A stretch of 37,566 nucleotides of DNA from Bdellovibrionales bacterium (GTDB taxonomy: Bacteria > Bdellovibrionota > Bdellovibrionia > Bdellovibrionales > UBA840): the NCBI GenBank assembly GCA_037969075.1, contig JBBKWS010000182.1, positions 1 through 37,566 of the forward strand, in the 5' to 3' direction. Each line of letters begins with the position of its first letter. Within the stretch, counting starts at the first letter, position 1. Of the stretch, positions 33,001 through 37,566 are shown in pieces. Position numbers: made by a program.

Positions 33001-36000
33001 AAATATTCTTTGGATAAAAACTCCAGGAGTATGAATCTGATCAGGGTCCAGGGTGCCAACCTCTACCAATTCTTCAACCTCAGCCACCGTAATTTTTCCT
33101 GCGGTTGCGATAATTGGATTAAAATTTCTTGCGGTCTTTCTAAAGATTAAGTTTCCAAATGTATCGCCTTTCCAAGCTCTGACTATGGCAACATCACCTT
33201 TAATGGCATTTTCTAGAACGTAATCTCGTCCATCGATATTTCGGATCTCTTTGCCAACAGCCACCTCAGTGCCCACACCAGTTGGTGTAAAAAAAGCTGG
33301 GATTCCAGCGCCGCCTGCGCGCAAGCGCTCAGCGAGTGTTCCTTGTGGAATTAATTCTACTTCAAGTTCTCCGTTTAGTAGTTGCTTCGCAAATTCTGCG
33401 TTTTCTCCAACGTATGACGACATCATTTTTTTAATTTGTTTATTGGCTAATAAAATTCCTAAGCCAAAATCATCAATGCCGCAGTTATTAGAAACTATAG
33501 TTAAATTTTTTGCCCCGATCTCTCGAAGTGCCTGAATGGATGTTTCTGGGATTCCGCAAAGACCAAATCCTCCAACCAGTAAGGTCATGTTGTCTTTTAC
33601 GTCTTCAAGAGCCTTCATAGCATTGGGAAATACTTTTGAATTCGCCATTTTATTGTCTCTCAACAATCATGGCTACAGCTTCGCCGCCGCCAATACAAAG
33701 TGTCGCAAGACCGTAGCGCTTATTTGTCCTCTGTAGTGAGTGAAGAAGAGTAGTTAAAATCCTAGCCCCACTCCCGCCGATCGGATGACCAATGGCAACT
33801 GCTCCGCCTTCAATGTTTACTTTTTCTCTAGGGATAGATAATTCTTTCATTGCGGCCATTGTTACCATGGAGAAAGCTTCGTTGATTTCCCAAAGATCAA
33901 TATCTTCGACTTTTAGCTTTGCCGTATCTAAGGCTTTTTTGATCGCGCCAACAGGAGCTGTTGTAAAATAGACCGGATCTTGCGCGAAGGTAGATGATGA
34001 AATGATCTTAGCTTGCGCCTTTAGTTTTTTATTCTTTAGAGTTTCTTCGTTTACTATAACCAATGCCGCCGCTCCATCATTGATGTTTGAAGCATTCACC
34101 GCAGTGATGGTTCCGTCTTTTTCAAAAGCAGCTCTTAAAGTTTTTACTTTTGATTCATCTAGTTTAAATACATCTTCATCACTATCAACGGTTGTCGTGC
34201 CCTTGCGGCCTTCAATGATCACAGGAGTGATCTCTGCTTTAAAGTGACCTTCTTTTGTGGCAGATTGCGCGCGCTTGTAAGATTCAACCGCAAATGCATC
34301 TTGCTCATCTCTAGTAAATTTAAGTTCTTTTACGCAAATCTCTGCGGCACTTCCCATATGAAAATTATTGTAAGGGTCCCACAGTCCATCTTTAATCATT
34401 GAATCTTGCGCCGTCACATTTCCCATGCGGTATCCGCTTCTGGCATTTTCTAGTAGGTGCGGAGCTTGGCTCATATTTTCTTGTCCACCGGCAACTACCA
34501 CTGTAGCGTTTCCAGCTAAGATTGAGTCACAAGCTAACATCACTGCTTTTAGGCCTGAGCCACAAACTTTATTAATTGTCATGCAAGGAACAGATGTGGG
34601 AAGGCCAGCAAAAATAGCGGCTTGCCTTGCTGGGGCTTGTCCAATACCAGCAGTCAAAACATTACCCATAATTACTTCATTGATGTCGCTTGGTTTTAAC
34701 CCACTACGCTCAACCGCAGCTTTTATGGCTGTTGCCCCAAGTTTTGAAGCAGTCACTGTAGACAGGCCTCCGTTAAATGAGCCCACTGGAGTTCTAGCAG
34801 AAGAAACGATATAAATATTTTCTTTCATATTTCACCTCTTTGAATAGGTAAGAATGTATTTTTAAGAGAGCTGATTGTAAATCTTTTTACCAGTAAATTT
34901 GGATACACTAAGTCAAAAGGGACTAGATAGCTGCTTGTGTTTGTGCATAAAGCCTTTTAAGCTTTTGTTTGGGAGTTTTTATGTGGTTAGTTTTATTATT
35001 TCAGATACTAAATGCTCAAGATTTTATCACTAAAGATGCAAAATCTGCCGAAATCATAGGAGCCTCTATACAGGTCGCTCTCAGTCAAACAAAAAGCAAT
35101 ACGCTGAGCTGGAAGTGTGCAGATAGTAGCTGTAAAATCACTCCCACCATTTTAGAGGGGAAACTACGTATAAAGGTCATGACTAAAGGTAAAGTTATAA
35201 TTCATATGCCTGATATGCCTCTTAGTTTATATGCCACAAACTTACATTTAACTGCTTCGAATTGGGTAAGTGGTATTAAAGTTAGAGGGATGAAGTCTAC
35301 GCTAGATCTAAATAATACTAAGGGTCTTATTGATATTAATGGCAGTATCGTAAATGCAAAAATAAATAAGCATGAGGGACCTATAAAGTTCGACGCTTTT
35401 GATGGTAAAGTGCAAATCGTAGGAGCTAAATCCGATATCGAAATAAGTCAGTTCACAGGTCTCATTGGTCTGTTAAAAATTGATGGTGAGATCAGTGTAG
35501 CGACACAAAATGCAGATACCGTTATCAAAGATAGTCAGGGTAAATTAAAATTTACTACTACAAAAGGGCAGATTAACTTGAGTTCCTTTCAAGGTGAGAT
35601 TCACGGAGAATCAAAAGAGGGCGTGAGCGAACTAAGTCCACTGGCAAATTCAAAACTATATTGGAAGGCCGACAAGGGACGAGTAATACTTGATACTAAA
35701 AATATGGATGGAGCAAAGGTTGATATTGCAAGCATCGCAGGAAAGATGCAGCTAGCTCCTTCTTTAAAAATTAAGACAGAAAATGGATGGCGAGTGGCGC
35801 GCGCTAAACTTTTAGGCTCTGAACTTGGGTCCATTTTAGTACGCACAAATAAGGCTTCAATTCGTATGAGTTCTGAATGATTGAGCTTGACGACTTATTT
35901 TGAAAACTACATAGTCATGCCTTATGGCAAAAGCAAAAAAAACAGCAAAAGCAAAGAAAGTTACTAAGAAGGCAAAGGCTACTCCTAAAAAAGTAGCAAA

Positions 36001-37566
36001 AACCATGATAAAAAAAGCGGCTAAGCCTAAAAAGGTAGCTACTAAAAAAGCAGTTAAGCCTAAAAAGGCAAAAGCTGTTAAAAAAGTAGCAAAACCTAAA
36101 AAGGTGGCTGCTCCTAAGAAAGCAGTTAAAGAGGTAAAAGCAAAACCTGCGAAAACAAAATCTCCATCTAAAAAAGAAGCAAAAGCTAAAAAATCTCCAG
36201 AAGTGGAGAATTTAGATGAGGATTTGAATGAAGAGGTGCCTGCGCAGCCTGAAGAGGCAAATTGGGAAGTAGACCCTGATGATGTGGTTTTAACGGATGC
36301 TGATGGTAACCCGTATTGTAAAGCTAAAGATTGCGATCAATTAGCGGCTGTTGATGGCTATTGCCGATTTCACTATATTTTACTTTGGAAGCGCATCCAA
36401 AATCGTAAAAAAATCTTAGCAGGGGACAAATTAGATCGTTATATCGAAGAGTTAACGGCTAGATATCCAGATAAATATCTAGAGATGTTACGTAAAGACT
36501 TAGCTTCAGAAAAAGATTTCTTAGCAGTCGTTGCAGAGCTTGATATTGATGAAGGTCTATCTGACTCTGAGTTTGATGATGATTCAGAAAATTTCATCGA
36601 TGAAATGCGCGGAGTCTCTCGTGAAGAAGGCGACGACGAATTTTAAAGGATATTTTTTGTGAAAAAGCACAAAGCAGTTATCACGAATAATCAGGGTAGC
36701 GAGAACGATATAGATGTAGAAATCATACATCTAACAACTAAAACTCGAATTATCAAATCAGTGCAGCTATTTTTTATATTAATAATAGCTGCTGCTCTGA
36801 GTGCCTTAATCCCAGTCTTTCATTTTATACTAGTACCAACACTTATTATTTTGGCCATAGTGCTGCCGTTTATTAATATAAAAAATGACAAGGCGATGAC
36901 GGCTCAAAAGATTAAGTGTCCAAAATGCAAAAATCCCATAGCTTTTAAAACAAAACGATTTCAGCAAGAAATCAAGACTTTCTGTCCGGCTTGTAGATCG
37001 CAATTAAAATTGTTTTTAAAGTAGTAAAAAACGTCAATTCATTATACAGGCACAAGATCTAGTCATGTTATCCAGGTTTCCTAAAAGTTATAATACTTTC
37101 GTGTGGTATCCCAATTGCAATCTATATAATTGAGGGAGATGGCTATGATTCAAAAGGTACTATACTCAGGGTTATTGTTAATATTTTTAACAGGGTGCGG
37201 AGAAGGCTTTGACGTCAAAAGTTTAGAAGGCGACGTTAAAACATCAATCGGCGAAGTAACAGAGATCGAAAAAGCTACACTTACTGATATGCAATCCATT
37301 GAATCTGATATTGCAGATTTAGAGTCAGTAACTTTTGATGAGTATAACAATCCAGGATTAAGTCTTTCCAAAATTAAGGCTTTAAAATCAAGCTTAGGTT
37401 CAAAGCTTGATGATATTGTTAAAAAAATCGAAGCGTTTAAATTAAAAATTTCAGAACTTAGATCTAAAATTAATGACTACATTGCTATTCTTGATCCTAA
37501 TGATCCCAACCAACAACAAATCATTGAAAGACTACAAGAACTTTTACTAAAGCTTGATCAAATTGA

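Follow-up and report, generated by a model that had tools for sequence, protein, structure and literature searches.

What does a conserved gene do when its product combines a histone H1-like basic tail, a zinc-finger motif and an acidic end, and belongs to no annotated family? The question is raised by g2284, located at 35924..36646 on the forward strand of a 37,566-nt stretch of Bdellovibrionales contig JBBKWS010000182.1 (hereafter the window). The genome-wide survey's note had described it as an unannotated, order-wide protein with an HMGA/CarD-like layout and a candidate nucleoid or transcription factor of predators. The gene, a reading frame of 240 aa, is real, and Pfam and NCBIfam searches with the protein returned nothing at or above cut-off, while exact look-ups yielded 'hypothetical protein' alone. 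Profile matches and gene order mark it as the probable orthologue of Bdellovibrio bacteriovorus Bd2092. Its best explanation, to which we assign a probability of about 45%, is a housekeeping nucleoid-associated regulatory protein that probably helps control transcription; its binding to DNA, zinc and polymerase is predicted.

The protein can be divided into six segments, all encoded on the forward strand. A Lys/Ala/Pro-rich tail (residues 1-92, net charge +38; 35924..36199) varies in length among relatives and is missing in some; over residues 1-91 it consists of 44% Lys and 23% Ala. It is followed by an acidic linker (residues 93-128, net -15 by charge count; 36200..36307) and a treble-clef-like CCCH finger, C132-x4-C137-x9-C147-x2-H150 (36317..36373). 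In the predicted structure of the core, pLDDT reaches 93-95 across the finger, in agreement with the survey's value above 90, and one zinc is predicted to be bound, given the conserved ligands and the confident model. Behind the finger the model places a basic amphipathic helix (Y151, W155, K156, R161, K169; 36374..36433; finger and helix together, residues 129-170, have a net charge of +5), and then a helical hairpin with L-x2-Y-I/V-E-x-L and Y-P-D-K-Y motifs (residues 171-207; 36434..36544), which is lost in one family, designated f16. The acidic C-terminus (residues 208-240, net -13; 36545..36643) has a short amphipathic motif and ends in Phe or Tyr, as do 167 of 219 family members. The window protein has a pI of 9.2 and the Bdellovibrio orthologues a pI of 5.5-6.0, the latter being net acidic as whole proteins. 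No hydrophobic segment was detected (highest 19-residue hydropathy, 0.55).

The finger motif is unique to g2284 among the 3335 ORFs of this genome and is present in all 120 listed homologues, although the search had not required it. The survey's claim of invariant residues has exceptions: the finger His is replaced by Asp in one member (L053), the finger is lost in another (L081) and ligands are altered in two paralogues (L082 and L083). The basic positions of the post-finger helix are conserved as well, including in tail-less forms. At E<=1e-3, 686 clusters at 50% identity match, compared with 651 counted earlier. ESM Atlas neighbours comprised three unnamed clusters at 0.79-0.86, a tail-less query returned no usable named cluster, and tblastn of the core against phage and plasmid collections gave no match. 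A PDB sequence search with the family profile reached only E 0.088, which is not meaningful.

The taxonomic range proved broader than the single order first proposed. Of the 121 order genomes, 120 gave one match each, as did all 107 of those that are of high quality. The gene was further detected in 232 of 251 Bdellovibrionota genomes, and a second phylum, UBA10199 according to one record, has it in 68 of 73. In that phylum and in several Bdellovibrionota families the product is a tail-less protein of about 110 aa adjoining miaB, and of the 61 best matches from the second phylum, 59 come from reading frames no longer than 145 aa. Since this tail-less form is so widespread, the conserved unit, as judged from sequence, excludes the tail and comprises the C-x4-C-x9-C-x2-H finger, basic helix, helical hairpin and acidic end. 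The tail is not universal: of 184 members that are complete and distinct, 36 have fewer than 60 residues before the finger; among tailed members, 145 of 148 contain at least 20% K+R within their first 80 aa. Nor is an H1-like tail diagnostic, because 13 ORFs of this genome bear such stretches and the second-phylum matches are short. In this genome the Lys/Ala tail, an optional addition to the family, is also attached to GroES, aconitase and ribosomal proteins, with lysine tails on L17 and L21. Such H1-like tails are widespread additions in these bacteria and should not be taken as function. A tree of 68 rows and 85 columns, in which bootstrap support is unsettled, implies two to three changes of tail label without fixing their direction. 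Family f16 either has the gene in reduced form or gave no match; degenerate copies were seen in 5 of 14 genomes, and even these retain the finger. The qualifier 'of predators' may also be too narrow, given that nearly all genomes of the second phylum, which is uncultured, have the tail-less form. No genus names of Myxobacteria or Desulfobacterota occur among the 80 named loci listed from the motif scan.

Expression of the gene would start from its own promoter. A sigma-70-type site, TTGACG-17-CATAGT (35887..35915, forward strand), ends 8 nt before the ATG. At this locus alone such a site is at chance level; across homologues it occurs in 59 of 172, against a shuffle mean of 13.3 (maximum 20), and 42 of the 59 sites end 6-9 nt before the ATG, which suggests that the mRNA is probably leaderless or near-leaderless. 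The upstream neighbour on the same strand (34969..35880) is a DUF4097-like beta-solenoid gene, the Bd2093 orthologue, which is a conserved neighbour in Bdellovibrionales and whose cluster is present at 70 of 199 loci; Pfam matched DUF4097 on one member (L141) and not on the window's own copy. The two genes probably do not form one transcript. The idea that a Bd2093 transposon phenotype reflects a polar effect on the finger gene was set aside, because many relatives have the finger gene's own promoter and Duncan's table shows no predation defect for either locus. The thiolase and CoA-transferase genes on the opposite strand (32281..34828, reverse), which are divergently oriented, served as synteny markers for finding the orthologue.

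Gene order, combined with arithmetic on protein lengths, points to Bd2092 (CAE79936.1) as the probable orthologue in strain HD100; this accession was not read from a label, and those of RNA polymerase and SecY were likewise assigned by gene order. In a published supplement, CAE79936.1, labelled Cytoplasmic, has a nucleoid/top log2 ratio of 4.06 (about 17-fold) and occupies row 115 of at least 1260, which independently supports the survey's proposal of a candidate nucleoid or transcription factor. In the same data, the ratios are 3.36 for histone Bd0055, 4.01, 4.12 and 3.89 for RNA polymerase alpha, beta and beta-prime, -1.26 and -0.46 for the neighbouring thiolase and Bd2093, and 1.72 for the tailed ribosomal protein L17; for 28 proteins encoded in the ribosomal-operon block the median is 0.02 (about 1-fold). 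Among 111 listed 'Cytoplasmic' rows the median is 0.25, with 18 above 4.06 and 15 at 3-5. The nucleoid iBAQ of the putative orthologue is 1.4e7 versus 2.1e8 for Bd0055, about 15-fold less, and corresponds to roughly 0.4 per RNA polymerase beta. Published RNA levels of this orthologue are 7 RPKM for the attack phase, 551 for the growth phase and 2065 for host-independent cells. In Tn-seq of host-independent 109J, the gene, putatively EP01_RS06365 in that strain, is not essential and tolerates insertions (Duncan's table), with noisy W values of 6-8. The nucleoid table of Hocher flags the orthologue as not DNA-binding by Pfam, and the available part of a 2025 preprint gives a list of Bdellovibrio nucleoid proteins that omits it.

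Under the nucleoid-associated regulator reading, the CCCH finger would bind one zinc and position the basic helix behind it, and the two together may hold on to DNA, either in general or where transcription complexes sit. The hairpin and the acidic end, which closes with an aromatic residue, might bind a partner or fold back onto the basic surface, and in Bdellovibrio, Bacteriovorax and their kin the added Lys/Ala tail would raise non-specific nucleic-acid affinity. If the orthologue assignment is correct, published data suggest that the protein is made during growth from its own sigma-70 promoter and persists in attack-phase cells. It appears too scarce for bulk packaging and would therefore more likely tune transcription or local chromosome structure. 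Near-universal, nearly always single-copy occurrence favours this explanation, as do the nucleoid enrichment, the growth-phase RNA, the absence of a hydrophobic segment and the conserved basic positions of the post-finger helix. The finger also resembles in sequence the one at the N-terminus of phage HNH endonucleases; in predicted fold, many matches superpose about 30 residues at an rmsd of about 0.7-2 A, although no match reaches E<=0.001. Against it, the nucleoid fraction also gathers membrane material, according to the available text of PMC10627809: SecY (log2 4.49) and the block CAE81251-81257 (3.2-3.7), which we take to be ATP synthase, are enriched in it. The lysine tail alone could cause co-sedimentation, tailed L17 being at 1.72. 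The net acidic character of the Bdellovibrio proteins, the reduction or apparent absence of the gene in f16, its dispensability in 109J and the nearest solved structures, A20 fingers whose ligand is ubiquitin rather than DNA, also count against it.

Several other explanations deserve consideration. The main rival is that the protein is a lineage-specific RNA-polymerase cofactor resembling GcrA or RbpA, whose finger would dock on sigma-70 or core while the helix and tail hold promoter DNA. The sigma-binding domain of GcrA, as described in the available text of PMC5887438, is itself a CCCH finger (C-X14-C-X9-C-X2-H) that needs Tyr142, located before the third Cys, for binding, and Tyr or Phe occupies that position in 65 of 68 aligned members, which were chosen with a motif demanding an aromatic or His. 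Single copy, housekeeping expression and an enrichment within the range of the polymerase subunits fit as well. However, the 14-residue loop making most sigma contacts in GcrA is only 4 residues here, the GcrA Pfam model matched in 0 of 5 genomes (E<=1) and in none of the member scans, transposon insertions are tolerated, and the polymerase-like ratio may be chance because 15 of the 111 cytoplasmic rows lie at 3-5. When the core was modelled together with RpoD regions 1.2-4, two runs scored 0.00; the partner fold was uncertain and controls were not folded, and this score speaks neither for nor against the idea. We consider this cofactor role unlikely. Speculative and rather unlikely is its extension, in which the family would be a new general transcription factor that serves both Bdellovibrionota and UBA10199 as their counterpart of GcrA/RbpA. 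It would ride RNA polymerase via a phage-endonuclease-class finger and favour the growth-phase programme, with the added H1-like tail in Bdellovibrio and Bacteriovorax holding it on the condensed attack-phase chromosome; loss would shift host-independent cells toward attack, at which the noisy W values may hint.

It is quite improbable that the protein is an adaptor of a membrane-bound or other large complex, with an A20-like finger and enrichment by co-sedimentation. Among solved folds, A20 fingers and Rabex-5 score best (Z 3.8-4.1; 30-31 residues superposed at an rmsd of 1.6-2.1 A), the acidic end and terminal aromatic are conserved, and many tail-less loci have a gene for a small membrane protein immediately upstream; yet Z values near 4 are usual for common arrangements, no gene for a membrane partner is kept next to the family in both phyla, and the conserved basic helix and repeated addition of lysine tails point to nucleic acid. 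The miaB gene follows on the same strand in 18 of 33 tail-less loci, as the very next gene in 13 of them, and in 33 of the 65 tailed loci that have at least 2.9 kb of downstream sequence; the degenerate f16 orthologues keep this arrangement. Such proximity would suit an RNA- or tRNA-related factor acting with MiaB or the ribosome, as would the lysine tails of L17 and L21. We regard this as distinctly improbable: ribosomal proteins stay near 0 in the gradient, miaB is universal whereas the finger gene is not, miaB lies on a different contig here, and all five f16/f17 genomes checked have miaB without the finger gene upstream. A chaperone or linker partner of histone Bd0055, acting through the acidic stretches, is suggested by two long acidic tracts and by the occurrence of both proteins across most of the phylum. 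This idea is highly improbable and was rejected because the profiles disagree: all 15 of 15 f16 genomes encode the histone, but the finger gene occurs there only in degenerate form (5 of 14), while families f15 and f19 have the gene in 5 of 7 and 7 of 7 genomes and the histone, by a single query, in 0 of 7 each.

Comparison with known systems helps to delimit the family. Streptomyces DdbA likewise joins an H1-like N-terminal tail to a compact domain, with a nucleoid-transcription link proposed in the available text of PMC3643593; the present core instead has a CCCH finger without a DksA family match, an optional tail and a two-phylum housekeeping range. The four-Cys finger with coiled-coil tip of DksA/TraR is absent, the fourth ligand being His. 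With Caulobacter GcrA (PMC5887438, available text) the family shares the C-x9-C-x2-H end, the aromatic before the third Cys and an unstructured pre-finger region, but differs in spacing (4, not 14), in lacking a PF07750 match and DNA-binding domain, and in its extra hairpin and acidic end. As in Myxococcus CarD, HMGA and the H1-type CarD of Anaeromyxobacter (PMC2919716, available text), a basic tract adjoins a highly acidic one, in tailed forms only. Membership of HMGA/CarD nevertheless fails because AT-hooks and the CarD domain are lacking: no [RK]GRP core occurs in 184 complete members, CarD_TRCF (PF02559) matched neither the protein nor 37 core members, and the finger has no counterpart in CarD. 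H1-like bacterial nucleoid proteins (AlgP, Hc2, the DdbA N-domain) have a comparable Lys/Ala/Pro-rich tract, which 36 of the 184 members lack, but are net basic and as abundant as bulk chromatin components, unlike the scarce, acidic Bdellovibrio proteins. The same finger class is seen in HNH endonuclease N-termini (phrog_5351, phrog_1271), Zf_WRKY19 (PF24906) and DUF5763 (PF19067), all weak matches below cut-off. The earlier statement of no PHROG hit needs amending, since 21 of the 37 members scanned match phrog_5351 weakly, at E 4e-4 in the best case, with the window member's match confined to core residues 7-31; unlike these endonucleases, the family has no nuclease domain or HNH Pfam match and carries one finger on a conserved chromosomal gene. 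In A20-type treble clefs (A20 ZF7/ZF4, Rabex-5) the finger-then-helix unit superposes as above, but there the fourth ligand is Cys rather than His, and no ubiquitin context exists here. The treble clef was the consistent top match, with Foldseek E >1; fold searches of two models gave nothing at E<=0.001 or Z>=5, and GcrA was not among the listed rows.

These results bear on the organisation of the condensed, histone-bearing chromosome and on attack/growth switching in Bdellovibrio, for which they supply a nameable, abundant and non-essential, therefore deletable, candidate in the model strain. The tail-less 110-aa form offers a minimal natural version for biochemistry. The family may also serve as a marker for two phyla; finger-only matches in Planctomycetota records and one HNH gene belong to other families.

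The 240-aa product of the (+)-strand ORF at 35924-36646 opens with a basic tail (residues 1-92, net charge +38), which leads through an acidic linker (93-128, net -15) to a C132-x4-C137-x9-C147-x2-H150 finger and its basic helix; a helical hairpin comes next, and the last stretch (208-240, net -13) is acidic. The genome-wide survey's note had described it as lacking a family annotation, which was borne out by Pfam and NCBIfam scans of the full protein (zero families at cut-off). With residues 110-225 as query, 643 relatives were retrieved, and the C-x4-C-x9-C-x2-H motif was present in all 120 of those listed; a profile search matched 686 clusters at 50% identity. 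Later invariance counts (219 of 223 loci, and an alignment of 68 rows) are partly circular, because many loci had been fetched or chosen by the motif.

The gene belongs to a real, unnamed core family of two phyla. The single copy noted earlier for each order genome held (one match each in 120 of 121), with two matches in five genomes of the wider phylum, Bdellovibrionota. There, 232 of 251 genomes match (215/228 in the high-quality subset), and those without a match are concentrated in one family, f16 (0/15). A broader profile recovered degenerate orthologues upstream of miaB in 5 of 14 f16 genomes (loci L308, L310 and L347-L349), which keep the finger, basic patch and acidic end and have lost the helical hairpin; in four further f16 genomes and one from f17, nothing of the kind precedes miaB. 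In family f24, second copies have altered metal ligands (L082:1183-1839, L083:1159-1860), and one f29 member has no finger (L081:1453-1986). Scanning 185,579 genomes for the motif gave at least 120 stretches, 80 of them named; among the matches listed, these were mostly Bdellovibrionota, the rest being labelled Deltaproteobacteria, Nitrospirales or Myxococcales. Four of the latter belong to one other phylum (UBA10199 by the title of one record), in which 61 of 61 genomes match (68/73 in an overlapping draw). A third, small phylum has matches in 3 of 16 genomes, and the phage and plasmid records searched gave none.

The core model of the window protein reaches pLDDT 93-95 across the finger (pTM 0.41), and that of a tail-less member exceeds 90 over 72 residues, a long helix and three shorter ones accompanying the finger. 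Among solved folds, A20-type fingers rank highest (Z 3.8-4.1; 30-31 residues superposed at rmsd 1.6-2.1 A), with Rabex-5 also among the best (Z 3.9); all these scores are low. Weak sequence matches link the finger to HNH-endonuclease profiles (21/37 and 16/37 members), as in phage HNH endonucleases, and, below cut-off, to Zf_WRKY19 or DUF5763; in predicted viral structures the same finger occurs mostly in HNH or unnamed proteins. The finger therefore belongs to a known, widespread class, and no library searched contained it joined to a helical and acidic part like this one. A different small family, encoded in two Planctomycetota records and in a third titled 'bacterium' (L128:2902-3390, L151:2974-3366, L162:2887-3300), pairs the same finger with a predicted helical region behind it; in L151 the end is acidic.

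The Lys/Ala tail is optional. Frames of 145 aa or less make up 59 of the 61 second-phylum matches, and within Bdellovibrionota, families f18, f19, f23 and f26 also include tail-less proteins of 105-150 aa. On a rough tree, a 96/93 branch holds nearly all Bdellovibrionota rows, most second-phylum rows fall outside it, and the tail label has to change 2-3 times. Such tails are a genome-wide habit here: 13 of 3335 ORFs contain an H1-like window, including GroES-like (C55:1470-2033, +), aconitase (C3:17707-20088, +), L17 (C128:1183-1698, +), L21 (C142:18810-19331, -) and topoisomerase I (C163:10656-13340, +) proteins, and a SWIB-like protein (C178:15423-15827, +) is also tailed; these names were read from sequences, with no family scan behind them. 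Two further proteins are candidate nucleoid proteins, one of 176 aa consisting of a lysine tract and then an acidic tract (C145:817-1344, +), the other a tailed protein of 185 aa with a small, conserved-looking C-terminal part (C163:6434-6988, +). The HMGA/CarD-like layout proposed earlier is not supported as membership of those families: none of 184 complete members has an AT-hook core, and membership in CarD/HMGA, GcrA or DksA does not hold, GcrA, CarD and DdbA having been compared from partial sources. Placing an H1-like tail on a zinc-finger regulator is a layout with precedents; for the core there are none. RbpA, AlgP and Hc2 serve as further comparisons.

In B. bacteriovorus Bd5, a thiolase (391 aa), a DUF4097 gene, the subject-family gene (298 aa) and a 159-aa gene follow in order. 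Since partial sources give Bd2095 as a thiolase (PMC7529429) and Bd2093 as a beta-solenoid (PMC10482364), the subject gene corresponds to Bd2092. In the available part of PMC10627809, reciprocal-hit identities for CAE79935-79940 fit lengths of 159, 298, 310, 391, 232 and 218, the neighbour lengths in order, and from this length arithmetic, not a label, we infer that CAE79936.1 is the orthologue. Gene order points to EP01_RS06365 as the 109J counterpart (Tn-seq table, PMC6561027). Expression, nucleoid-fraction enrichment and non-essentiality thus come from papers through an inferred orthologue, and represent usable prior data for the family in a model predator. Main texts searched contain no mention of Bd2092, CAE79936, EP01_RS06365 or Q6MLC1 (a guess from a neighbour's accession), and topic searches gave no description among the papers listed; subscription journals and bioRxiv supplements lay outside these searches and may hold more.

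The best reading, at a probability of roughly 0.45, is a nucleoid-bound regulator, in which the finger would bind zinc, finger and basic helix would contact DNA, and the acidic end would contact a partner. In the available part of PMC10627809, orthologue RNA stands at 7.4 RPKM (attack phase), 551 (growth phase) and 2065 (host-independent cells; supplement 9), and LFQ is 6.5e8 versus 6.4e9 for the histone Bd0055. In the nucleoid fraction, CAE79936.1 has iBAQ 1.38e7, a ratio of 4.06, the label 'Cytoplasmic' and no DNA-binding flag; the ratio is taken to be a log2 value, since the text speaks of 10-fold for Bd0055, whose figure is 3.36. Among 111 'Cytoplasmic' rows within the ~330 most abundant proteins there, the median is 0.25, with 18 above 4.06 and 15 at 3-5, and membrane proteins are enriched equally or more. 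RNA polymerase alpha, beta and beta-prime, with accessions assigned from gene order and stoichiometry, stand at 4.01, 4.12 and 3.89, and the median of 28 further proteins from the same operon block is 0.02. The main rival, a GcrA-like cofactor tethered to polymerase, is rather unlikely; it overlaps with the nucleoid-bound regulator, so that a chromosome-or-transcription role totals about two thirds. In host-independent 109J, EP01_RS06365 has Tn-seq values where polymerase genes are ND (PMC6561027) and appears in none of the other files among eight supplements, where an essential-gene list was expected, so this locus is not essential there; its high W values (6.1, 6.0, 8.2, 7.3) share inputs, have deviations of the size of their means and may reflect noise due to a small number of insertions. 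An adaptor protein is doubtful; in its favour, the finger superposes on those of A20-type proteins and Rabex-5, at low Z scores. A histone chaperone is very improbable, because gene and histone distributions are discordant. The window's genome encodes a Bd0055-type histone (C133:3445-3636, -), and with it as query 0/7 genomes matched in each of families f15 and f19.

A tRNA or ribosome factor is improbable. Downstream, miaB shares the gene's strand in 18 of 33 tail-less loci and, where the flank is long enough, in 33 of 65 tailed ones; a thiolase lies close by in 81 of 96 tailed loci. A sigma-70-type promoter site was found in 59 of 172 homologues (mononucleotide shuffles: mean 13.3, maximum 20), 42 of them ending 6-9 nt upstream of the ATG, some start codons being uncertain because they were picked by rule; in the window, TTGACG-17-CATAGT ends 8 nt before the ATG. 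The Bd2093 orthologue occupies window 34969-35880; a legend of the review PMC10482364 names Bd2093 as a transposon hit from Tudor et al., yet in Duncan's table the matching 109J locus has a fitness of 1.4-2.4. A conserved, unannotated gene of ~175-215 aa (L132:1391-1915, -, and relatives; zero Pfam matches) converges on the subject gene in many Bdellovibrionales loci, and guaB follows in several Bdellovibrionota loci. In the second phylum (L087, L105, L289, L161), glnD, a 70-80 aa membrane-protein gene, the subject gene and miaB recur in order, followed by a bifunctional-nuclease-domain gene and a hexapeptide-repeat gene. At window 36659-37024, a 121-aa protein has a hydrophobic stretch and two CxxC pairs, with weak zinc-ribbon matches below cut-off.
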